Notes under the pieces: model-generated
The model's database searches: none
The model's input: only the letters and a program-made list of their open reading frames with translations
Told to the model about the DNA's origin: nothing
Assembly (NCBI GenBank): GCA_900766735.1
Contig: CAAFWO010000052.1
Location: 58,539-122,538 of the forward strand
Direction: 5' to 3'
DNA from: Clostridia bacterium
Lineage (GTDB): Bacteria > Bacillota > Clostridia > CAKSNL01 > HGM11501
Length of the DNA stretch: 64,000 nucleotides
Translations under genes and position numbers: made by a program
In this document: piece by piece, positions 3,863 to 60,597 of the stretch
Layout of the letters: each line of letters begins with the position of its first letter
Numbering within the stretch: the first letter of the stretch is position 1

Positions 3863-4858
3863 ATGATAGTTCTCGGGATCGAAAGCTCGTGCGACGAGAC
3901 GGCCGCGGCGATAACAAGGGACGGGAGAGAGGTTTTGTCCGACGTTATCTATTCGCAGGCCGATATACATTCAAAATACGGCGGAGTCGTGCCGGAGATA
4001 GCGTCCAGAAGGCACATCGAAAAGATATTATATGTCATAGATAAGGCGCTCGCCGACGCGGGCATGACGAAGGACGATATTGACGCGATCGCCGTCACAA
4101 TGGGGCCCGGCCTTGTCGGAGCGCTCCTTGTCGGCGTTTCGGCGGCAAAGTCGCTCGCCTATGCGTGGGGCAAGCCGCTCATCGGCGTCAACCACATAAT
4201 CGGGCACATCTCGGCAAACTTTGTCGCGTTCCCTGAGCTCACACCTCCGTTTTTGTGCCTCGTCGCGTCCGGCGGCCACAGCCACATCGTGAATGTGAAA
4301 AGCTACACCGAGACCGAGATACTGGGCGCAACGAAGGACGACGCGGCCGGCGAAGCGTTTGACAAGGTCGCGCGCGTCATCGGGCTCGGCTATCCGGGCG
4401 GCCCGAAGGTCGACGCGGCGGCAAAAGAGGGCAACGACAAAGCGTTTGACTTTCCGAGGGCGAAGACCGGAAACGATTTTTCGTTCAGCGGATTAAAGAC
4501 CGCCGTTATCAACACCGTTCACAAGATGGAGCAAAAGGGCGAGCCCGTCCCGCAGGCGGACATTGCGGCAAGCTTTCAAAGAGCGGTCGTCGACGTGCTG
4601 ACAGAAAAGACGATCCATGCGGCAAAGATTTCCGGCTCTGAAAAGATATGCCTTGCCGGGGGTGTTGCCTCAAACTCGCTTTTAAGAAGTGAAATGGCGA
4701 AAAAGGCAAAGAGCGAGAAAATAGAGGTTTACTATCCGCCCTTAAGGCTCTGCACCGACAACGCGGTGATGATCTCGTCCGCCGGATATTTTAAATACAA
4801 ATACACGGGCGAGACTGCCGGAAACGACTTAAACGCATATCCCGCGCTTTCAATTTAA
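3863..4858 (+). CDS. tsaD: tRNA N6-adenosine threonylcarbamoyltransferase TsaD (Kae1/Gcp family)
   Basis: N-terminus [17 protein letters not shown] and HxxH metal motifs. Confidence 0.9.
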
Positions 4859-4863
4859 AAGAC

Positions 4864-4885
4864 CTTCGGGTCTTTTTTTGTTTAA
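4864..4885 (+). terminator. Rho-independent terminator after tsaD
   Basis: gaccttcgggtc hairpin followed by TTTTTTTG. Confidence 0.6.
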
Positions 4886-4929
4886 AAAATTGTTTTGGGG
4901 CAATACTCATTTTGAAAGAAGGTATTGCT

Positions 4930-5052
4930 TTGAAAATTGAACGCTATGTAAACGGGAAAAAGATCACGTTTGACCAGATGAAAAGATACACCGTTAAGAA
5001 CAGGACCGTCGACGCGGCGGTCGAGCGCGTGATAAAACGCGAGAGCAGATGA
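4930..5052 (+). CDS. Hypothetical small basic protein (~40 aa, TTG start) translationally coupled to the serine recombinase
   Basis: An AAGAAGG RBS lies 8 nt before the TTG. Its stop overlaps the recombinase start (ATGA). It is not in the ORF track because of the TTG start. Confidence 0.3.
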   Translation: MKIERYVNGKKITFDQMKRYTVKNRTVDAAVERVIKRESR

Positions 5053-6401
5053 CGAAAAAGACGGCGCTTTATATAAGAGTGTCGACCGACGCACAGCGCG
5101 AGGAGGGCTATTCGATCGACGCGCAGAAGGAGATGCTTTCGGCCTTCTGCGTGTCGAAAAGAATCGAAAACCACGAGTTTTTCATCGACGGAGGCTTTTC
5201 CGGGAGCAACTTGGAGCGCCCGGAGATGAAAAGGCTCATCGCCGAGGCAAAGGAGAAAAAGATCTGCCGCGTCATCGTCTATAAGCTCGACCGACTGAGC
5301 CGAAGCCAGAGAGACACCCTTTATTTAATAGAAGAAATTTTTAATCCGAACGGGATCGACTTCGTTTCGATGAACGAGAGTATGGACACGTCGACTCCGC
5401 TCGGGCGGCTGATGCTCGGCATTCTCTCCGCCTTCGCGCAGTTGGAGCGTGAAAACATCAAGGAGCGCACGAGGATGGGAATGGCCGAGCGCGTCAAGGC
5501 CGGGTTCTGGCCTGGCGGCGGACGGGTGCCGTTCGGATATGACTATGACCCCGAAAAGGGGATACTTGTCCCAAACAGCGACGCACAGACCGTGAGGCTC
5601 ATCTATAACCTCTACATTTCGGGAACTCCGATGTATAAGATCGCAAAGACGGTCGGTCTTAAATATGAGCGCCTCGCGGTGCAGATACTAAAGCGCAAGT
5701 CCAACGCCGGCTACATCGTCTATAACGGCAAAGAATATAAAGGAAGGCACGAGCCGATTATAAGCGAGGAGACCTATAATGAAGCGATGGCGCTTATGGA
5801 GGAGCGCTCGAAAAAAAGGCTGACCGATTCTGAGTATCTGCTCTCGGGAATAGTCTACTGCGGAGTGTGCGGCGCTAAGATGCGCTATCAGAAGTGGGGG
5901 AAAAGCGGCGCAAAGCTCTGCTGTTACTCGAAGGACAAAAACAAGCCCTATCTTGTAAAGGACCCTGACTGCGACAACGAAAACGTCTGGGCGTCCGAAG
6001 TGGAGGACGCGGTGGTGGGCGACATTCTGGAGCTCTCATACAAGATCGAAAAGGGAGCTTTACCCGAGGCGGACATAACGGGCGCGCTTTCGGCGAAAAA
6101 GCTTCAGTGCGAGAAAAAGTTAAAAAGGCTCTATTCGCTCTATGCCGCGGACGGCGACGAGGTTTTAAAAAGCGCGATCGCCGAGGTGAAAAAGGAACTT
6201 GAAAAAGCCGAGGCGGCGCTTTCGGATGAAAAGAAGAAGGAGGCGGAGGCCAAAAAGCGCGAGGGCAAGAGGAAAAAGCTTGAAACGTTAAAGGACACAT
6301 GGGAGTTTATGACAGCAAAAGAGAAGAGAAACATCGTCCGCAGTCTGGTCTCAAAGGTCACCGTGACGCACGACACTGTGAAAATTGAGTATCTTTTGTA
6401 A
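5049..6401 (+). CDS. Large serine recombinase (resolvase catalytic domain, recombinase domain, zinc ribbon, coiled coil)
   Basis: N-terminal ALYIRVSTDAQ with the catalytic Ser, and a CGVCG...C...C zinc ribbon. The C-terminal coiled coil is K/E-rich. Confidence 0.85.
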   Translation: MTKKTALYIRVSTDAQREEGYSIDAQKEMLSAFCVSKRIENHEFFIDGGFSGSNLERPEMKRLIAEAKEKKICRVIVYKLDRLSRSQRDTLYLIEEIFNPNGIDFVSMNESMDTSTPLGRLMLGILSAFAQLERENIKERTRMGMAERVKAGFWPGGGRVPFGYDYDPEKGILVPNSDAQTVRLIYNLYISGTPMYKIAKTVGLKYERLAVQILKRKSNAGYIVYNGKEYKGRHEPIISEETYNEAMALMEERSKKRLTDSEYLLSGIVYCGVCGAKMRYQKWGKSGAKLCCYSKDKNKPYLVKDPDCDNENVWASEVEDAVVGDILELSYKIEKGALPEADITGALSAKKLQCEKKLKRLYSLYAADGDEVLKSAIAEVKKELEKAEAALSDEKKKEAEAKKREGKRKKLETLKDTWEFMTAKEKRNIVRSLVSKVTVTHDTVKIEYLL

Positions 6402-6523
6402 ATATGTGTAACATTAATGCGTATGATGTAGTCTGCAATGCGCATATTTAGGCATTTTGATGAAAAAAGTTAATAAGGTTTAATGTTTTCACCAAAAAAA
6501 ATTAAATTTTGCTAAATTTTGTG

Positions 6524-6552
6524 TTGATTTTTTGTGCATAATGGTATATAAT
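6524..6552 (+). promoter_or_regulatory. Sigma-A-type promoter (TTGATT-N17-TATAAT) for the 7-gene operon
   Basis: Near-consensus -35/-10 elements lie in the AT-rich spacer, ~110 nt upstream of the ATG at 6661. Confidence 0.45.
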
Positions 6553-6660
6553 AAAGTATGTACGTTTTTACCGGGCGGCTCTGCGCCCAAAAAACGCCGG
6601 AAAATGGGGGCCGGCGGGCAAAGAGCCGGGCAGATATTATTTTCTACAGGAGGTTTTAAA

Positions 6661-9714: not shown

Positions 9715-10653
9715 TTGTTTAACTTCATGAAAAAGAAAGACGACGTTCTCCCGAACGAGAACAAGAAGAATACATGGCTTGAGATCAAGAAGAATAAATC
9801 CAATTACCTTCTTATCGCTCCGTACATGATAATCTTCATCGTTTTCACGGTTATCCCGGTTGTGTCCTCGATGATCTTGAGTTTTACATATTTCAATATG
9901 TTCCAGTGGCCCGAATGGCGCGGCTGGCTTAACTACAGAAGGCTTTTCTTAGAGGACGATATTTTCCTGATCGGTCTTAAAAACACATTGATGTTCGCAT
10001 TCATTTTGGGACCGACAAGTTATGTGTGCTGTTTCTTCTTCGCATGGCTCATAAACGAGCTTCCACCCAAGGTCAGAGCATGTATGACGCTTTTATTCTA
10101 CGCGCCTTCGATGTGCTCTTCGATTTACACGATCTGGCTCTTCATCTTCAGCGGTGACGCCAACGGTCTTGTAAACTCATACCTTATGAAGTGGGACTGG
10201 ATAAGCTCTCCCATTCAGTGGTACACCGATACGGACTATAACGTTAAGGTCATAATCGTAATTCAGCTGTGGCTGAGCCTTGGAACAAGCTTTCTGTCCT
10301 TTATCGCCGGTTTCCAGTCGCTCGACAAAAGCTATTTCGAAGCAGGCGCGATCGACGGTATCAAGAACAGATTCCAGGAGCTTATCTATATCACCGTTCC
10401 GGCGATGCGTCCTCAGATGATGTTCGGCGCGGTTATGCAGATTGCAAGCTCATTCGGTATAGGACCGGTCTGCAGAACGCTTGCCGGATTCCCCAGTACA
10501 AACTACTCTCTGCGTACCATCGAGACGCATATTTACGACTACGGTACGACGAGATATGAGATGGGTTATGCGTCGGCGATAGCATTCTTCCTTTGCATAA
10601 TGATGATAGTGACCAGAAACCTGATGGCTAAGCTCATCAGAGTAGACGATTAA
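9715..10653 (+). CDS. ABC transporter permease (MalF/UgpA-like)
   Basis: Six TM helices and an EAA loop (EAGAIDGIKNRFQELIYITVPAMRP). The start is re-called to the TTG 8 nt after AGGAGG. Confidence 0.7.
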   Translation: MFNFMKKKDDVLPNENKKNTWLEIKKNKSNYLLIAPYMIIFIVFTVIPVVSSMILSFTYFNMFQWPEWRGWLNYRRLFLEDDIFLIGLKNTLMFAFILGPTSYVCCFFFAWLINELPPKVRACMTLLFYAPSMCSSIYTIWLFIFSGDANGLVNSYLMKWDWISSPIQWYTDTDYNVKVIIVIQLWLSLGTSFLSFIAGFQSLDKSYFEAGAIDGIKNRFQELIYITVPAMRPQMMFGAVMQIASSFGIGPVCRTLAGFPSTNYSLRTIETHIYDYGTTRYEMGYASAIAFFLCIMMIVTRNLMAKLIRVDD

Positions 10654-10670
10654 GAGAGGAGGGGAAACAC

Positions 10671-11636
10671 GTGGCAGAAACAATAATCACTGCGGAAAAC
10701 AAGGCGGTAAATATGAACGACCTTCCCGAAGAATTAAGGGAAAAAGTCACTCCGAAGCGAATGAGAGTCAGAAAGAAAAGGGTCAACCGTTCGCTTGGCG
10801 GCGACATCGGCGTTATATTACTGCTCACAATAATGGGTCTTTTCATGGGCGTTCCGCTTTACTACACGATAATTTCGGCATTCAAGCCTCTTAACGAGCT
10901 TTTCATTTTCCCACCGAGATTCTATGTATCACAGCCGACACTGTCAAACTTCAAGCAGGTATTTGACCTTGCGTCAAACCTCTGGGTTCCCTTCTCGAGA
11001 TACGTGTTCAACAGCATATTTGTCAGTGTTGTTGTAACAGTGGGGCACGTTATTTTGGCTTCGATGGCGGCCTATCCGCTTGAGAAAGCAAAGTTCCCCG
11101 GCTCAAAGGGACTGTTCTCGCTGGTTCAGCTCACACTTTTGTTCACCGGCGGAACGATGGCCATTCCGCTTTATGTCGTAATGGCTTATCTCGGACTTGT
11201 AAACTCCTATCTCGCGCTCATCCTTCCCGCACTCGGATCCAGCTTGGGCCTCTTCCTTATGAAGCAGTTCATGAGAGGTATTCCCAACTCGATGCTTGAG
11301 GCCGCGAAGATTGACGGTGCGAACGAATTAACAATCTTCTGGAAGCTGGTTATGCCGAACGTTAAGCCCGCATGGCTCACACTTTCGATATTCGCCTTCC
11401 AGTCGATATGGAACAACACAGGTAACAACTTCATTTATTCCGAGGAACTTAAGATGCTCCCGACAGCGCTCAACCAGATCTACGCAGCGGACGCCGCAAC
11501 AGGCGTCGGCAACGTTGCGCGTCAGGGAAGTGCGGCGGCAGTTGCACTCATACTTATGATACCGCCGATAATTTTCTTCGTGCTGACACAGAGTAATGTC
11601 ATCGAGACAATGGCATTCTCCGGAATGAAAGACTGA
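10671..11636 (+). CDS. ABC transporter permease (MalG/UgpE-like)
   Basis: EAA loop EAAKIDGANELTIFWKLVMPNVKPA. A GAGGAGGGG RBS precedes the GTG start. Confidence 0.75.
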   Translation: MAETIITAENKAVNMNDLPEELREKVTPKRMRVRKKRVNRSLGGDIGVILLLTIMGLFMGVPLYYTIISAFKPLNELFIFPPRFYVSQPTLSNFKQVFDLASNLWVPFSRYVFNSIFVSVVVTVGHVILASMAAYPLEKAKFPGSKGLFSLVQLTLLFTGGTMAIPLYVVMAYLGLVNSYLALILPALGSSLGLFLMKQFMRGIPNSMLEAAKIDGANELTIFWKLVMPNVKPAWLTLSIFAFQSIWNNTGNNFIYSEELKMLPTALNQIYAADAATGVGNVARQGSAAAVALILMIPPIIFFVLTQSNVIETMAFSGMKD

Positions 11637-26737: not shown

Positions 26738-26826
26738 TGTGAGTGAAACTTTTTTGCCTTTTAAGGGATATATAAGGGTGTAAAGAGTAAAAGCTTTTAA
26801 CTTTGCAAAAAGAAAGCGGGTTTGGC

Positions 26827-27354
26827 ATGGCAGATGAGGCAAAGCTTCTGGCGCAGATTAAAAAAGGGGAAGAAAGGGCTATCGACCGGGCGGTCGGGCT
26901 CTATACGCCGTATTTGAGCACGGTGCTTTATAATATGGCGTCTAATCTTTCCAAGGAGGACACAGAGGAGATAGTGCCCGACGTATTTTTTGCGCTCTGG
27001 AAAAACGCGGAGTACATAGACCTTAATAAAGGCACGGTCCGCTCATACCTTGCCGCGGCGGCGCGCAATTTCGCACTGAAACGGCTGAAAAAGAAGAAGG
27101 ATTCGGTTAGCCTTGATGAAGCGGAGATTTCCGATAAAGCCGGGGACAGTTTCTCGGCGGTGACCGTGTGGGACGCGGTTATGAGCCTCGGCGAGCCGGA
27201 CAGCGAAATATTCATAAGGTTCTATAAATACGGCGAAAGAATCAGGGATATTTCAAGGGCAACGGGAATTAATATGTCTACCGTTAAAACCAAGCTTTCA
27301 CGCGGGAAAGACAAATTAAAAAGAATTTTATCTGATGCGGAGGCAATGTTATGA
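26827..27354 (+). CDS. ECF-type sigma-70 family RNA polymerase sigma factor
   Basis: Region 2 and region 4 motifs (...ISRATGINMSTVKTKLSRGKDKLKRIL). Its stop overlaps the start of the downstream gene. Confidence 0.7.
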   Translation: MADEAKLLAQIKKGEERAIDRAVGLYTPYLSTVLYNMASNLSKEDTEEIVPDVFFALWKNAEYIDLNKGTVRSYLAAAARNFALKRLKKKKDSVSLDEAEISDKAGDSFSAVTVWDAVMSLGEPDSEIFIRFYKYGERIRDISRATGINMSTVKTKLSRGKDKLKRILSDAEAML

Positions 27355-28133
27355 AAAGAAAAAACGACTTATTTGAAGAGCTGAATCTCGGAAAGGAGCA
27401 GGGCTTCTGCGCCCCGTTTGAGATTGACACAGGCTCCGTTAAAAAAAGGGTGAGGGCAAAAATTGATTCCGCATGCACGGAAAGGAAGACTGTTACTATG
27501 AGATCGAAAAAGAAAATTGCACTTATCGCCGCTGCTGCGGCACTCACGCTCGGCATATCCGCGTTTGCGGCGAGCGGCGTTGTATCAAGCTGGTTCAGCT
27601 CGTCATCGTCTGTCCCCGATTACAAGTCGCTCCCGACTGCCGAGGAGGTTAAAAAGGACATCGGCTATGACGCGGTTGTTGTTGACGGATTCGAAAACGG
27701 CTATGTGTTTAAGAACGGAAGCGTTGTCGATAACTGCTTCGCGGACGAGGACGGAAACACGGTCGAGAGGTTTAAGTCGGTATCGTTCGACTATGAGAAG
27801 GAAGGCGATACTGTCACCTTCACCGAGGACTGCTTCAGCTCCGAAGTCGGTATAGCGGGCGAGGTCGTTAAGAGCTTAAACGGCACGGATATTTATTATC
27901 ACAGCTACAAAAACAAGTCCGTTCCCGGCGGATATGAGTTATCCGAGGAGGACAAAAAAGCGGAGGAGTCAGGCGAGCTTGTGTTCAGCTACGGTTCGCC
28001 TGAGGTGGAGATTCACGATATCAAAACCGTTACATGGGTGAAGGGCGGATTACATTTCCAGCTTTTGCAGATAGACGGCAGACTTTCGTCCGACGAGCTT
28101 GTTAAAATGGCAGAAGAGGTTATAGAAAGATAG
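27351..28133 (+). CDS. Putative membrane-anchored anti-sigma factor (single TM, extracytoplasmic C-domain)
   Basis: ATGA overlap with the sigma gene. A single TM helix (IALIAAAAALTLGISAFAA) sits ~55 aa from the N-terminus. Confidence 0.5.
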   Translation: MKRKNDLFEELNLGKEQGFCAPFEIDTGSVKKRVRAKIDSACTERKTVTMRSKKKIALIAAAAALTLGISAFAASGVVSSWFSSSSSVPDYKSLPTAEEVKKDIGYDAVVVDGFENGYVFKNGSVVDNCFADEDGNTVERFKSVSFDYEKEGDTVTFTEDCFSSEVGIAGEVVKSLNGTDIYYHSYKNKSVPGGYELSEEDKKAEESGELVFSYGSPEVEIHDIKTVTWVKGGLHFQLLQIDGRLSSDELVKMAEEVIER

Positions 28134-29078: not shown

Positions 29079-29975
29079 TAAGAAAAATTATGGAAGTTCA
29101 GTATTGTGGTGAAATATTGGTTAATGTTATTTGTAACAAATAACGTCTCTCTCAACAGTATTTATAGTTTCTTGAGAGATTGTATTCGTGTTTAATAGAT
29201 ATACAATGTTTAATTTTGGATTGAAAATACCTAATTTGTCTATACTTTTAAATTCCTCTTTTCCTGAATGAATTCCCATTATCCAATACATTAATAATTG
29301 TAATGTTTGTTTAGATGTTATTTTAGACTCTTTAGAAACCTTGAAATCCCATAAAGTATCGTGCGTCAGATAGTCGCCGTCACCATCGGTAACAACATTT
29401 GTATAGCCATCGTTTTCGAATGTGAATCCGGTTATAGTGACAGGCCCGTATTGTGCCCAAAATTTTATACAACGGTTAAGCATGATGCGAATATTTTCTG
29501 TTGTAATTATATCAGGACACGCACGTGGAATATCGTACGTGGCGTCACTAAAAATCGCACTAAGCGGAGATCTGTACCATACATCATATGCGCATGCTTG
29601 ACAAGCAGCCATGATTGAAGCGTCATCAGTCCCTTTTATTTGCTCTAATAAGGATGATATATCAATTTTTCTTTTTTTTAGAGTCCGCTCAAGAGATTTA
29701 TAGTTCCTTATGCATTCTTGATATCCGTATTGAGAAATTTGAAATGCTGTTTCTATTGGAACACCAATCAAAAAACGGGTTAAGTAATCAATAGCACTAC
29801 CTATAATATTGGGGCTTATGTCTTCATTACTGTTAAGAGTAATGCCATCATCAAATTTGATTTTTTCAAAACTGGAAGGCCTGACATATCCTCCATAAGG
29901 TTGTTTGATAGATCTAATACGTCCTGTAACAGTTGACATTTGAAAACCTCCTTAATTAAAATAAATTTGACTTTG
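29079..29975 (-). mobile_element. ~0.9-kb AT-rich inserted cassette carrying a single orphan gene, bounded by the 52-bp direct repeats
   Basis: A sharp compositional drop (by eye ~1/3 GC against ~55% flanks). It has its own RBS (GGAGG). A 9-bp palindrome (GTTATTTGT.ACAAATAAC) sits at the gene's 3' end. No integrase lies inside it. Confidence 0.5.
29127..29939 (-). CDS. Orphan 270-aa protein of unknown function in the AT-rich cassette; it may contain a PD-(D/E)xK-like motif (VTDGDGD...WDFK)
   Basis: A long ORF with a good RBS and atypical codon usage. I do not recognise any family. Confidence 0.55.
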   Translation of the reverse strand: MSTVTGRIRSIKQPYGGYVRPSSFEKIKFDDGITLNSNEDISPNIIGSAIDYLTRFLIGVPIETAFQISQYGYQECIRNYKSLERTLKKRKIDISSLLEQIKGTDDASIMAACQACAYDVWYRSPLSAIFSDATYDIPRACPDIITTENIRIMLNRCIKFWAQYGPVTITGFTFENDGYTNVVTDGDGDYLTHDTLWDFKVSKESKITSKQTLQLLMYWIMGIHSGKEEFKSIDKLGIFNPKLNIVYLLNTNTISQETINTVERDVICYK

Positions 29976-31358
29976 TTTTACTGATTTCTCACGCTCGGAA
30001 AAAATCTTCGGGAACGACGAAAAGATGACGATTGCGGTGATAATGCCGGCGACGAAATCGGCTATTCCTTCGGACATATAAACGCCCTTATAGCCGAGAA
30101 AATGCGTTAAGATGAAGCAGAGCGGAATTAAGATGACGACCTTGCGCATAACGGCTAAAATGAGCGCTCGCTTCGCCTGCCCGAGCGCGATGTTGACGTT
30201 TTGAAGCGTCATCTGTACGAAGAACATTACCGAGCCCATTAAAAAGAGCGGCGCGTTGGATCTCACGATCTCGGTGACAGATGGGCTTGCCGAAAATAAA
30301 ATTGCATAGACCTGGGGTACGGCGAGCGAGAACGACCAAATTGTGACCGCGAAGATGAATGCTATTATGGTGACTATTTTGATTCCCTCTTTAAGCCTCT
30401 TTGAATTTCCGCGGCCGTAGTTGTAGCTCACGAAGGGCTGCATTCCCGTTCCGAGCCCGTTTAACGGAAGCGATATTAGCTGAAGCGCGCTTTGCATAAC
30501 GGTCATCGCGGCGGTATAGTCCTTGTTTCCGCCTGTCGCGCGGTTTAGGTTGACGTTGAAAACTATCTGTATCGCGCACTCGGTAATCGTCATCACAAAC
30601 GGGGTGAAGCCAAGTGAAAGAATTGAAAGAACGATTTTCCCTGACAAGCGCATTGCCTTGGGGCTGAAACGGAAAATGCTCCTTTTCAAACAGAAAAACA
30701 AAAGCACCGCGACGCATGAAAAAAACTGAGAGATTATTGTCGCGAGCGCCGAACCGCTGACGCCCATTTTGAGAGTAAAAATAAATACCGGGTCAAGCGC
30801 TATGTTTAATACGGCGCCCAAAAGGACGGAGCACATCGCATAAAACGAATACCCCTGAGTTAATATAAACGGGTTTAACCCCTGCGCGAGCATGACAAAA
30901 AGCGTGCCGGCAGAGTAAATTCTTAAATATGACACGGCGAATGAGACTGCGCTTTCGGGACACCCGAAAAGCCTCACGATCGGCTCGGCAAGGGCGAACG
31001 CCAAAGCGCTTGTTAAAATGCCTATAATAATGAGGAGCAGAAACGAATTGCTAAAAATCGTGTTCGCCGTCTCATTTTTTCCTTCGCCTAATTTGATTCC
31101 GGCGCGCGGCGAGCCGCCGAGGCCGATCAGGTTTGAAAAGGCGGAGATGATGAGCGTGACGGGAAGAACTATCCCGAGCGCGGCCAGCGCGTCCATCCCG
31201 GAGGGTTCGATCCTCGCGACATACATTCTGTCCACTATATTATATAAAAATGTGATTAGCTGTGCGATTACTGCCGGCACGGTCAGATGAAAGACGAGAG
31301 GAAGAATCTTTCCCGCTTCAAGCTCGGCCGTGACGGGCATATTTTTTCTTTTTAACAT
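29952..31358 (-). CDS. MATE family efflux transporter
   Basis: 12 TM helices and MATE-type sequence. Its 3' end lies inside the right repeat copy. Confidence 0.8.
   Translation of the reverse strand: MLKRKNMPVTAELEAGKILPLVFHLTVPAVIAQLITFLYNIVDRMYVARIEPSGMDALAALGIVLPVTLIISAFSNLIGLGGSPRAGIKLGEGKNETANTIFSNSFLLLIIIGILTSALAFALAEPIVRLFGCPESAVSFAVSYLRIYSAGTLFVMLAQGLNPFILTQGYSFYAMCSVLLGAVLNIALDPVFIFTLKMGVSGSALATIISQFFSCVAVLLFFCLKRSIFRFSPKAMRLSGKIVLSILSLGFTPFVMTITECAIQIVFNVNLNRATGGNKDYTAAMTVMQSALQLISLPLNGLGTGMQPFVSYNYGRGNSKRLKEGIKIVTIIAFIFAVTIWSFSLAVPQVYAILFSASPSVTEIVRSNAPLFLMGSVMFFVQMTLQNVNIALGQAKRALILAVMRKVVILIPLCFILTHFLGYKGVYMSEGIADFVAGIITAIVIFSSFPKIFSEREKSVKQSQIYFN
29976..30027. repeat. 52-bp direct repeat, right copy (current 3' end of the MATE gene)
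   Basis: It matches 29027-29078 with 1 mismatch, and it encodes the present MATE C-terminus. Confidence 0.7.
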
Positions 31359-57849: not shown

Positions 57850-60597
57850 ATGAAACGAAGAGTATGTATTTTACTTGCGCTCACGCTTCTTTTGTCGGCC
57901 TTTGTTTCCGTTTCGGCGGCAGACAAGGTGTTCACGGCGAAGGACGTGACGGAGCAGATCGGCGACGTTAAGATCGAAAACGGCGTCGTTGCTATCGGCG
58001 GAAATCTGAAGCTTTCCGCTATCGGGTTCAAGGCGGATCTGACGGGCGTTAAGTCCATCGAGATCAAGGCAAAGGAATACCGTGACCCGAACGGTGAAAT
58101 TTTCAGAGTTAAGGTGGACGACCCCAATTCATTAAGCATCGGCGAGATCGTGTTCGGTGACGGATCCGATACCGCAAGCGGTAACATCAGCGAGCAGAAG
58201 GGCGTTCACACGGTCTATCTTTATACGACGCTCCTTTCGACCGGTGCCAAGTGGGAGATTGAGACCATCACGTTAAAGAGCGAGGCTAAAAAGCTCGTAA
58301 CCCCCGTGCCGGACGATAAGATAATCGACAACTGGCACGACACATGGGCCGCGACCGACAGCTACGGAAGGCGCGTTGCGGACTTTGAGGAAACCGGACC
58401 CGTTAAAGAGGGAAACCGCAAAGTCGGTATGTTCTACTGGCCGAGCCTTACGACCGGCACGACCGGTGTGACGCCCGATATTTTAAGGGCACATCCCGAA
58501 GCGTACGGCGACTTTAAGAACCCGGCGTGGAAGAACGGCGGCAAGGAAATAGCTTACTGGTGGGGCGAGCCTGTTTACGGCTTTTACTCAGAGACTGATT
58601 ACTGGGTGCTTAAAAAGCACGGCACGATCCTTGCAAACGCCGGTGTGGACGCGATATTTATGGACTACACCAACGACGCGGGATTAAACATCAAGAACTA
58701 CAACCGCATTTTAAGGGTGTTCCACGACCTTCGCGAGGAGGGCATAAACGCTCCCAAGGTCAGCATCTACGGCAACATGGGCGGCGCGTCGAACGGAACT
58801 CCGAGAGAGGTTCTGCCGGCGATGTATTATAATCAGGTTAAGTCCGGCGAGTGGGACGACCTCATCTTCTACTGGGAGGGCGACCCGATGTACATAAACT
58901 TCCCGCTCTCCGAAAAGTCAAAGGTGACCGAGGATAAGGATCTTGAAAAGCTCTTTGCAGACATTGACTTCAAGCTCAACTTAAGAGACACGGGCGAGCT
59001 TCGCGGCGGCGCCGCAACAAGGGAACACCGCCACGTAAACTGGCTTGAGGAATATCCCCAGCATCCCTTCGGCGTGACGGACAGCGGAAGAAGAGAGACA
59101 ATCTCATTGGCTGTCGGAATCAACCAGTCTTATGTTGACGGAAGCTCGATTGTCGGCGTATTTTCCGACCCCTATACAAAGGGCAGAGCATATTCCGAGG
59201 CGTTCGGCGAGGACTACAGAGCGGACAACGGAAGAACCGCATATTTCTTCCGCGAGCAGGCCGCTCATGCTCTTAACGTGGACGCGGAATTCGTGTTCGT
59301 TGACGGCTGGAACGAGTGGAAGACACCCATCTATAACTCTTTCGGAACCCACACGGGAACGGTTTTCGTTGACCTTTTTGACGAGGAGAACAGCCGTGAC
59401 TTTGAGCCTTCCAGAAGCTATTTAAAGGACGACTATTATAACCTTTTAGTCGACTTTATAAGAAAATACAAGGGCACGCGCCCGGCACCCGTTGCAACCG
59501 CGGCCGCAACTATCGACATTAACGGCGCACCGTCGCAGTGGGACTCTGTCGGCCCGATGTTCTATAACGACTTTGACAACTATGAGCGCGACTACACCGG
59601 CGGAGAGGACTTTGAGACGGGCGAGCCCGTAAGCTATAAGACGACAGTCAACAACTCCATTTCGCGCGCGAAGGTCGCAAGAGATAACGATAATTTCTAT
59701 TTCTATGTTAAGACGGTGAACCCCATAAAGACCGGCACTCCCGGATTTATGAACCTCTACATAAACTCTGACAGAAACCCGGCAACAGGCTGGGAGGGCT
59801 TTGACTACTCCGTTAACGTGGCCGGCGACAAGGTTCTTGCAAAGGCGGTAAATAACTCCTGGAGCTGGGAGCCTGTTGGTAACATTAACTACACCGTATC
59901 GGGCGACGTACTTCAGATGGCGATCCCGAGAAGCCTCTTAGGCGAGACCGGAACGGTTGACTTTGAGTTTAAGTGGACTGACTCCTTAGTTTGCGACGGA
60001 GATTATCTTGACTTCTATTCTGAAGGCTCCGTAGCTCCTATGGGCAAGTTTAACTACGTTTACACAGAGGTTGAGCAGACCGCTCTTACTCAGGCTGAGC
60101 GCGACGCGCTTCCCGACGTTTCGATCCTCAAGGCGGGCACATCCAAGGCAATTATCGACGGCGGAAAGATGCCTGTTTACGAGAAGGACACCGCGGTTAC
60201 TCCGTTTGAGATGAACGGAACGCTCTATGTTCCGCTCGAAACCTATGAAGAGATCTTGGACTACGGCTTTACAAAGGTTGAATATTCGGCAGAGGACAAC
60301 ACGGTTTACCTCGGAAGGCACGACTTAGAGCCCAATTCGACCGGGAACGTTTACACCATCACGAACTACGAGTGGACATATTCTGTTGTCGGCTCGCTTG
60401 AGGCAAGAAACAACGGAACGCTCCGCACGCTCACCAACGCATGCGTAACGGCTAACGGCCTTGTCTACGTTCCGGTGTCCTACGCGGCAGACGTTTTCGG
60501 CTGGTCCGTAAGGAACGTGGGCGGCGGAATCTGGACGGTGTCCAGAAACCCGGCAAGCGAGAGTGCGGTCAACGCAGTGCTTCATCATTTAGGTTAA
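57850..60597 (+). CDS. Large secreted protein, paralog of 37574-40252 (CBM-like domain, putative glycoside-hydrolase-like domain, CuAO N-terminal-like domain)
   Basis: Signal peptide and conserved blocks shared with the paralog (PVPDDKIIDNWHDTWA.TDS.GR, FREQ.A..L.VD, DGWNEW). Confidence 0.6.
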   Translation: MKRRVCILLALTLLLSAFVSVSAADKVFTAKDVTEQIGDVKIENGVVAIGGNLKLSAIGFKADLTGVKSIEIKAKEYRDPNGEIFRVKVDDPNSLSIGEIVFGDGSDTASGNISEQKGVHTVYLYTTLLSTGAKWEIETITLKSEAKKLVTPVPDDKIIDNWHDTWAATDSYGRRVADFEETGPVKEGNRKVGMFYWPSLTTGTTGVTPDILRAHPEAYGDFKNPAWKNGGKEIAYWWGEPVYGFYSETDYWVLKKHGTILANAGVDAIFMDYTNDAGLNIKNYNRILRVFHDLREEGINAPKVSIYGNMGGASNGTPREVLPAMYYNQVKSGEWDDLIFYWEGDPMYINFPLSEKSKVTEDKDLEKLFADIDFKLNLRDTGELRGGAATREHRHVNWLEEYPQHPFGVTDSGRRETISLAVGINQSYVDGSSIVGVFSDPYTKGRAYSEAFGEDYRADNGRTAYFFREQAAHALNVDAEFVFVDGWNEWKTPIYNSFGTHTGTVFVDLFDEENSRDFEPSRSYLKDDYYNLLVDFIRKYKGTRPAPVATAAATIDINGAPSQWDSVGPMFYNDFDNYERDYTGGEDFETGEPVSYKTTVNNSISRAKVARDNDNFYFYVKTVNPIKTGTPGFMNLYINSDRNPATGWEGFDYSVNVAGDKVLAKAVNNSWSWEPVGNINYTVSGDVLQMAIPRSLLGETGTVDFEFKWTDSLVCDGDYLDFYSEGSVAPMGKFNYVYTEVEQTALTQAERDALPDVSILKAGTSKAIIDGGKMPVYEKDTAVTPFEMNGTLYVPLETYEEILDYGFTKVEYSAEDNTVYLGRHDLEPNSTGNVYTITNYEWTYSVVGSLEARNNGTLRTLTNACVTANGLVYVPVSYAADVFGWSVRNVGGGIWTVSRNPASESAVNAVLHHLG

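Follow-up and report, generated by a model that had tools for sequence, protein, structure and literature searches.

What does a lone large serine recombinase (LSR) do when its gene lies between the housekeeping gene tsaD and a large transporter operon? The question is raised by a 64,000-nucleotide stretch of contig CAAFWO010000052.1 from a Clostridia bacterium (positions 58,539 to 122,538, forward strand; hereafter the window), in which a 40-aa open reading frame (ORF), the mini-ORF, and a 450-aa LSR gene form a translationally coupled pair at 4930 to 6401. Our results suggest that the two genes are a domesticated, trans-acting module that rejoins the halves of the split sporulation sigma-factor gene sigG (spoIIIG) in this lineage, a reading to which we assign a probability of about 0.62.

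The recombinase and its coupled partner

The gene at 5049 to 6401 on the forward strand encodes an LSR, as identified by its N-terminal catalytic domain and its C-terminal recombinase domain and zinc ribbon. The Pfam domains found were Resolvase (PF00239, aa 6-152, E=1.7e-41), Recombinase (PF07508, aa 178-253) and Zn_ribbon_recom (PF13408, aa 264-326). Among PDB structures, the catalytic part matched the TP901-1 integrase (3BVP, E=6.5e-38), while aa 139-450 matched the C-terminal region of the A118 integrase (4KIS), which in A118 consists of recombinase domain, zinc ribbon and coiled coil; the window LSR probably has a coiled coil too, as read from the alignment to A118 integrase. The residues R10, catalytic S12, R82 and R85 and the zinc-ribbon cysteines 271, 274, 292 and 308 are invariant across 82 members of the LSR family, and judged by its sequence the enzyme is catalytically intact. 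A Hin/Gin-type invertase (about 190 aa with a C-terminal helix-turn-helix, using short inverted sites and an enhancer) was ruled out by the length of 450 aa and the LSR-type C-terminal domains, and the window LSR resembles these invertases solely in an outcome, inversion, that is found in its relatives. When compared with the curated NCBIfam cut-offs of the named equivalogs CcrA/B/C, XisF, IS607 transposase and YneB, the protein belonged to none of them (CcrB, 161 against 900; XisF, 146 against 375; others lower).

The mini-ORF (4930 to 5052, forward strand) starts with TTG at 4930, encodes the basic product MKIERYVNGKKITFDQMKRYTVKNRTVDAAVERVIKRESR and ends with a TGA at 5050-5052 that overlaps the ATG of the LSR at 5049-5051. 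A ribosome-binding site, GAAAGAAGG, can be read at 4914 to 4922, 7 nt before the start codon. A previous sequence-only reading of the window had described a lone 450-aa LSR with catalytic motif and zinc ribbon, preceded by a basic ORF of about 40 aa whose stop overlaps the recombinase start as ATGA, and both descriptions were borne out by the domain and structure matches, the invariant residues and the coordinates given above.

Using a profile built from obvious homologues, we found a mini-ORF homologue immediately upstream of 75 out of 84 related LSRs, mostly overlapping the LSR start, with the conserved core MxIxRY[VI]NGxK...V..R (alignment A1). The ratio of nonsynonymous to synonymous substitution rates (dN/dS) of the mini-ORF is 0.036-0.057, the lowest value being that against the relative L011, whose LSR is 93% identical to the window LSR with a dN/dS of 0.04. 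Both genes are therefore under strong purifying selection (dN/dS about 0.04), and the mini-ORF, with its low dN/dS and its homologues beside most of the related LSRs, is no accidental ORF. Its product belongs to no known family: searches of Pfam, NCBIfam and PHROGs and a profile search of PDB gave no significant match, and no informative relative was found among 1.8 billion representatives scanned. In the latter search, six stretches of the 4126-aa protein P0365 resembled mini-ORF residues 9-36 (E=1.2e-5), which could be due to chance or to a repeated small domain. We regard the mini-ORF product as a conserved, LSR-coupled partner and a candidate recombination directionality factor (RDF).

Upstream, the terminator scan placed an intrinsic terminator of tsaD at 4857 to 4876 on the forward strand, which insulates the mini-ORF and the LSR from tsaD transcription. 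It is followed at 4880 to 4907 on the same strand by a putative forespore-type (sigmaF/G-like) promoter, called from its motif, with a -35 element GTTTA (4880-4884), a 14-nt spacer and a -10 element GGCAATACT (4899-4907). The arrangement GTTTA-N14-GGCAATACT is kept before the mini-ORF throughout the clade, in the window as in L011-L020, although the DNA further upstream differs, and no sigma70-type promoter was detected between the tsaD terminator and the mini-ORF in a promoter scan. A relaxed -10 pattern was present in 74% of the windows upstream of mini-ORFs and in 15-18% of the controls, an enrichment that is suggestive only, because the pattern was partly derived from the same sequences.

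Split sigG in relatives and in the clade of the window

LSR relatives with 54-63% identity to the window LSR, from Oscillospiraceae, Lachnospiraceae, Defluviitaleaceae and unclassified Clostridia, are located where a sigma-factor gene is broken in two; the sigG-linked relatives as a whole span 54-75% identity. Once joined, the halves reach 466 bits with the SigG model NF006071, whose cut-off is 372; sigK was considered as the split gene and rejected, as the joined halves score as SigG and not as SigK. The gene is always cut at ...STYAVPM|IIGEI..., and the predicted joined sequence across this junction is ...TACGCGGTGCCGATGATAATCGGAGAAATA...; the stretch YAVPM|IIGEI is presumably sigma region 2.4. 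Among about 175 related loci, the N-terminal part (sigG-N, aa 1-98) lies on the opposite strand, convergent with the LSR and within tens of nucleotides of its stop, at 44, while the C-terminal part (sigG-C, aa 96-258) lies on the same strand within tens of nucleotides of the stop at 38. The promoters of sigG-N (GTATA-N14/15-GTGAAATAAT) resemble the motif before the mini-ORF, and the sigG promoter of C. difficile is of the forespore sigmaF type (PMC3789822).

The junctions at these loci resemble LSR attachment (att) sites. In L028, attL is GCTGTACCAATG|AATGTCATTAAGCGAAA and attR is TTTCGTCTAATGGCATTCAT|ACCAATGATAATAGG, and in L028, L106 and L134 the junction arms are inverted repeats around a shared core. 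By their arrangement, the sequences flanking the sigG break are identified as inverted-repeat half-sites typical of an LSR attP, and an intact palindromic attP is found in L055. The latter was considered as an excised circle and rejected, because it has no terminal overlap; it is a fragment with an attP junction. Some of the small sigG elements have an additional conserved ORF (MTRKQA..., 185-219 aa, weak HNH_repeat match) beside the P' arm, as at L055 1351-2040 and L028 4889-5446; in L055 it follows the intact attP right behind the LSR, as would be expected of an excised or free form.

The geometry of the halves differs between lineages. In L028 and L129 the sigG halves are in direct orientation around a 2.5-kb element, which excision would remove. 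Those of L106-L110 are inverted, so that rebuilding sigG requires the inversion of 6.6 kb of DNA with the LSR, the mini-ORF, two metabolic genes and sigG-C; L134 has an independent 2.9-kb invertible cassette, again with inverted halves. In L020, L104, L028, L106 and L134 the LSR borders one sigG half at the edge of the intervening DNA. In the window it is not next to a gene half, being flanked by tsaD and the transporter operon, and the 64 kb contain no piece of sigG.

A neighbour-joining tree places the window clade within the sigG-linked LSRs, with L020 as its sister. L020 and L104 share the layout tsaD-mini-ORF-LSR-[P arm]-sigG-C, in L104 continued by rplI and dnaB, and we take tsaD-mini-ORF-LSR-sigG-C to be the ancestral layout, which survives in these two relatives. 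In the L019 genome, sigG-C is on the same contig as the LSR, 15.4 kb downstream and behind recJ, relA, gap and a pyruvate:ferredoxin oxidoreductase gene. A query with the sigG-C of L020 returned many 161-aa fragments. All SigG relatives at least 79% identical to the sigG-C protein P0145 are C-terminal fragments of 161 aa (rarely of slightly other length), and among full-length SigG proteins the nearest reaches 72.7% identity to P0145. The clade has therefore fixed the split state. Constraint on the fragment is seen both within the species (dN=0, dS=0.11) and between genera (pN/pS, the ratio of the corresponding proportions of differences, 0.12). The fragment lacks a ribosome-binding site and has a terminator just upstream, and it is preceded by a 22-nt P arm, CTTTTCGCCTTTGATTGTTCAT|TCCGATGA, which is kept across genera while the DNA further upstream is unrelated.

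The opposite site of the clade was found through the protein P0294 on an 817-bp contig, L200, from a clade member without an assigned species, whose wider context lies outside the contig. It carries a clade-type attL, ...GTGCCGATGA|ACGTATAAAGGCGAAAAG, with an arm that is the mirror image of the P arms. In L200 this attL is followed directly (575-817) by TTGACA-N17-TATAAT, a strong sigma70-like promoter, and by a gene for what, judged by eye, resembles a Phd/YefM-type antitoxin, which hints at what adjoins sigG-N in at least one clade member.

In sample ERZ15610569, P0145 is present at 19.7x and a contig encoding a protein identical to the window LSR at 21.0x, on different contigs. Since both occur in one metagenome at similar coverage, the window species can be taken to have a split sigG, and we infer that its C-terminal half is far from the recombinase gene. 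A split sporulation gene with recombinase half-sites is found in the clade and, by inference, in the window species, and the window LSR presumably recognizes the sites of its clade.

A large group of 107-aa proteins was considered as the sigG-N of the window species and rejected, as it comes from a different species with a 1-nt insertion in sigG. In this very abundant gut species (L111-L114, positions 10001-10775; P0337 in 412 blocks), the insertion at about 10285-10300 lies exactly at the family att core, CCAATGATAAT-T[C]GGAGAAAT, and gives rise to adjacent ORFs of 107 and 133 aa; it may be the scar of an imprecise element loss. On the same contigs, ftsZ is likewise called as a pair of overlapping ORFs, 138 and 248 aa long, in each of four independent assemblies.

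The LSR/sigG-C locus is placed where the replication origin is expected in two lineages. In L104 (10651-20486) its neighbours are yybS-like (DUF2232), rplI, dnaB, tilS, hpt and ftsH, genes that are origin-proximal in B. subtilis, and in L090 (22140-35486 of a 3.25-Mb chromosome) some 28 kb separate it from the beginning of the record. This origin-side position may bear on when the sigG halves meet in the forespore.

Proposed mechanism and competing explanations

We propose that the promoter at 4880-4907 would transcribe the coupled mini-ORF and LSR during sporulation, probably in dependence on sigmaF. By analogy with the GirC/GirX and CD1231/CD1234 systems, the LSR and its 40-aa directionality factor would recombine an attL-type site (sigG-N end and P' arm) with an attR-type site (P arm and sigG-C start), yielding an intact sigG and an attP-like palindrome, products predicted from the sequences of relatives. 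In the window species the LSR would act on sites that do not adjoin its gene; because sigG-C and its P arm are on another contig, the enzyme is expected to act in trans. Inversion is more likely here than excision, since the module and sigG-C are flanked in the clade by genes that are essential in model bacteria and since the future spore itself needs an intact sigG.

A more elaborate version of this mechanism, which we consider less likely than not, is that in the forespore the sigmaF-dependent LSR and its partner rebuild the split sigG of the clade by chromosomal inversion and that the LSR alone resets it after germination, which would make a germline-safe switch. If so, the sites may be distant from each other. 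Since the module and sigG-C have origin-proximal genes as neighbours (rplI-dnaB in L104) and the other half lies elsewhere, the rejoining could in addition signal that transfer of the chromosome into the forespore is complete; rplI-dnaB is origin-proximal in model Firmicutes.

Several points weigh against the rejoining of sigG by this module. The connection of P0145 to the window species consists of one shared sample, similar coverage and a matching order of divergence. For the window species itself, neither the sigG-N half nor its site was located, a query with the N-terminal part returning other lineages only, and neither a joined sigG nor an attP of this clade was present in the collections and assemblies searched. 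The promoter call is based on a motif that was partly derived from the same sequences. If mini-ORF and LSR were always co-expressed, a reset in each generation would be hard to explain, yet every assembly examined has the split state. Finally, the recombinase gene would lie more than 200 kb from its sites, an estimate from positions on two contigs, which is unusual for this class of enzyme.

Among the alternatives, the one that survives best, although we consider it unlikely, is a stochastic phase-variation switch on the same substrates, in which inversion or excision by the LSR, confined to a minority of the vegetative cells, would create a sporulation-competent sub-population. The inversion geometry of L106 and L134 is what phase-variable systems use, and the single orientation in all assemblies would fit a rare ON state. 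However, the mini-ORF is preceded by a conserved forespore-type motif and by no sigma70-type promoter, and LSRs are strongly directional, unlike Hin/Gin-type invertases.

We likewise doubt, and place next, that the window LSR is an orphan that has lost its link to sigG and has another target or none, the sigG fragments being joined by another enzyme or dead. Against an orphan stand the dN/dS of 0.04, the invariant catalytic residues and the conservation, in this clade, of both sigG-C and its P arm; in the closest relatives, the LSR still abuts the P arm. In favour of an orphan are the lack of an att-like site in the 64 kb, the separation of the recombinase gene from sigG-C and the sigG-N half that was not located.

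It is very improbable that the LSR is the integrase at the edge of a mobile island formed by the transporter operon at 6.5-18.4 kb. The sequence-only reading had proposed such an edge of an integrated element, possibly of the transporter island itself. Its description of the surroundings was confirmed by the Pfam annotation of the neighbours, with MatE, sua5, a low-molecular-weight phosphatase, GNAT and tsaD upstream, thus the housekeeping tsa cluster, and a 1012-aa solute-binding protein with ABC permeases downstream, in a large ABC-transporter operon; it was also right that no phage or conjugation genes are visible, as none is found among the genes annotated within 10 kb on either side. The proposed edge itself did not hold. 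No att-like direct or inverted repeats were found at 4.9 or 18.4 kb, the two boundaries searched, and the only repeat across the end of the LSR, an inverted one of 19 nt, has no conserved counterpart in L011. Nothing similar to the family att half-sites (P and P' arms) occurs anywhere in the window, and there is neither a tRNA near the module nor a compositional anomaly at the locus. A protein identical to the window LSR is recorded in 67 blocks of the collection, and at 10 of 10 places read from independent assemblies of the species the gene order is the same. In favour of an island, the operon, present in the window, L011 and L014, is absent from L020, L104 and L091. The linkage to the tsa genes on the left is kept in L011, L013, L014, L020 and L104; L020 and L104 have tsaD-mini-ORF-LSR without the transporter operon, and this linkage predates the operon. 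The identity of the LSR to its clade relatives (93, 77-78, 70 and 75%) falls in parallel with that of TsaD and Sua5. The mini-ORF and the LSR are conserved resident host genes that are vertically inherited, and not the integrase of a local island.

A phage origin of the LSR was also rejected. The closest match in phage records is 47.8% identical and lies on an unannotated 5.9-kb fragment, the A118 integrase is 35% identical, and relatives in IMG/VR have nucleotide-metabolism neighbours and no structural phage genes. In the IMG/VR contigs L115-L117, catalogued as viral, the LSR abuts sigG-N; in L117, the one examined, the neighbours are nrdD/nrdG, dUTPase and guanylate kinase and not phage structural genes, so the viral label may be a misclassification.

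It is just as improbable that the DNA stays unrearranged, the sigG fragments functioning as a sigma factor made of two polypeptides, and that the LSR is irrelevant to them. Both fragments are conserved and two-subunit sigma factors such as SigO-RsoA exist, but the cut lies inside YAVPM|IIGEI, in what we take to be region 2.4, sigG-C has neither ribosome-binding site nor promoter behind its terminator, and the conserved inverted-repeat arms at both junctions would have no role.

The intergenic region 3' of the LSR (6402 to 6660, forward strand) contains no att site and carries a sigma70-type promoter of the transporter operon at 6524-6552. Its first approximately 45 nt after the LSR stop (window 6402-6450) cannot be aligned with L011 (7354-7400), while both sides are conserved, and the window version has two ATGCG(T/C)AT motifs. 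The sequence-only reading had further suggested that the recombinase mobilised a cassette at 29-30 kb, which found no support: the genes at 29127-31358 on the minus strand encode a 467-aa MatE transporter and a 269-aa protein without Pfam match, have no link to the recombinase, and are accompanied by no family att-like site in the 64 kb. At 26803-28133 there is a 183-aa extracytoplasmic function (ECF)-type sigma factor (Sigma70_r2 and r4_2), unrelated to sigG, followed by an overlapping 260-aa ORF without Pfam match that is possibly an anti-sigma factor.

Significance and comparison with known rearrangements

If the proposed rejoining of sigG is correct, a directional recombinase acting on inverted sites would constitute a developmental switch that is reversible and operates in the germline, and the gene of the enzyme would be separate from the sites. 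Such a switch would place a further checkpoint between sigmaF and sigmaG in spore-formers that are abundant in the gut and mostly uncultured, and would explain why sigG seems to be a pseudogene or is missed in many metagenome-assembled genomes, which affects predictions of sporulation. The triplets of LSR, small cofactor and att sites, with their natural inversion activity, would also be of use for genome engineering.

The closest parallel is the skin element (SpoIVCA in B. subtilis; CD1231/CD1234 in C. difficile), where an LSR likewise rejoins a split sporulation sigma-factor gene, and where the recombinase gene is normally at the edge of the intervening DNA beside one gene half (Galperin preprint). 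In C. difficile, the 72-aa protein CD1234 sets directionality and cell type, and CD1231 inverts DNA when its sites are inverted (PMC5025042). The skin target differs, being sigK, a mother-cell gene, with the DNA lost from a terminal cell, whereas here it would be sigG in the forespore; moreover, relatives of the window LSR invert, the recombinase gene of the window is unlinked from the sites, and the partner is translationally coupled to the LSR, while the skin partner is separately regulated. The suggestion of the sequence-only reading that the gene might be a developmental recombinase of the SpoIVCA class acting elsewhere thus stands in part: a developmental role and a target elsewhere agree with our reading, whereas the target would be sigG rather than sigK, inversion occurs as well, and the protein is no SpoIVCA, XisF or Ccr equivalog.

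The gin element in gerE of B. cereus is also a non-phage intervening element with an LSR and an RDF without known motif; GirC alone integrates, and GirC with GirX excises (PMC5595907). GirX, with 42 aa, is of the same size class as the 40-aa mini-ORF product, a likeness of size alone. In contrast to our case, gin is a 28.6-kb excisable element in a mother-cell gene. For SPbeta in spsM, an LSR and an RDF (SprA/SprB) are likewise reported to reconstitute a sporulation gene, but SPbeta is an active prophage that excises in the mother cell, and no phage genes are seen around the window LSR. The A118 integrase of the Listeria phage offers the closest solved C-terminal architecture (4KIS, 35% identity); it is, however, a phage integrase with its phage attached, and the window has no mobile element. 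Phages of the A118 type interrupt comK, where they serve as a regulatory switch. XisF, the LSR of the fdxN element in Anabaena heterocysts, is under developmental control and restores a gene while the cell differentiates, but it matches the window LSR only partially in NCBIfam (146 bits, far below 375) and excises in a terminal cell.

The genes sigK, gerE, spsM, cotJC and spoIIID are mother-cell genes, while sigG is forespore-specific. As a rule, such rearrangements occur in the mother cell, whose genome is discarded, so that the element is excised without loss, and the known skin, gin and SPbeta targets act in this terminal cell; a split sigG breaks this pattern, because sigmaG is active in the future spore itself. 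A survey of sporulation genes in 180 genomes lists such elements in sigK, cotJC and spoIIID only, and no report of an interrupted sigG was found in the searchable full-text literature. Compared with the known LSR-driven rearrangements, the system described here is new in its forespore target, in the inversion seen in relatives and in a recombinase gene that, in the window, is detached from its sites.

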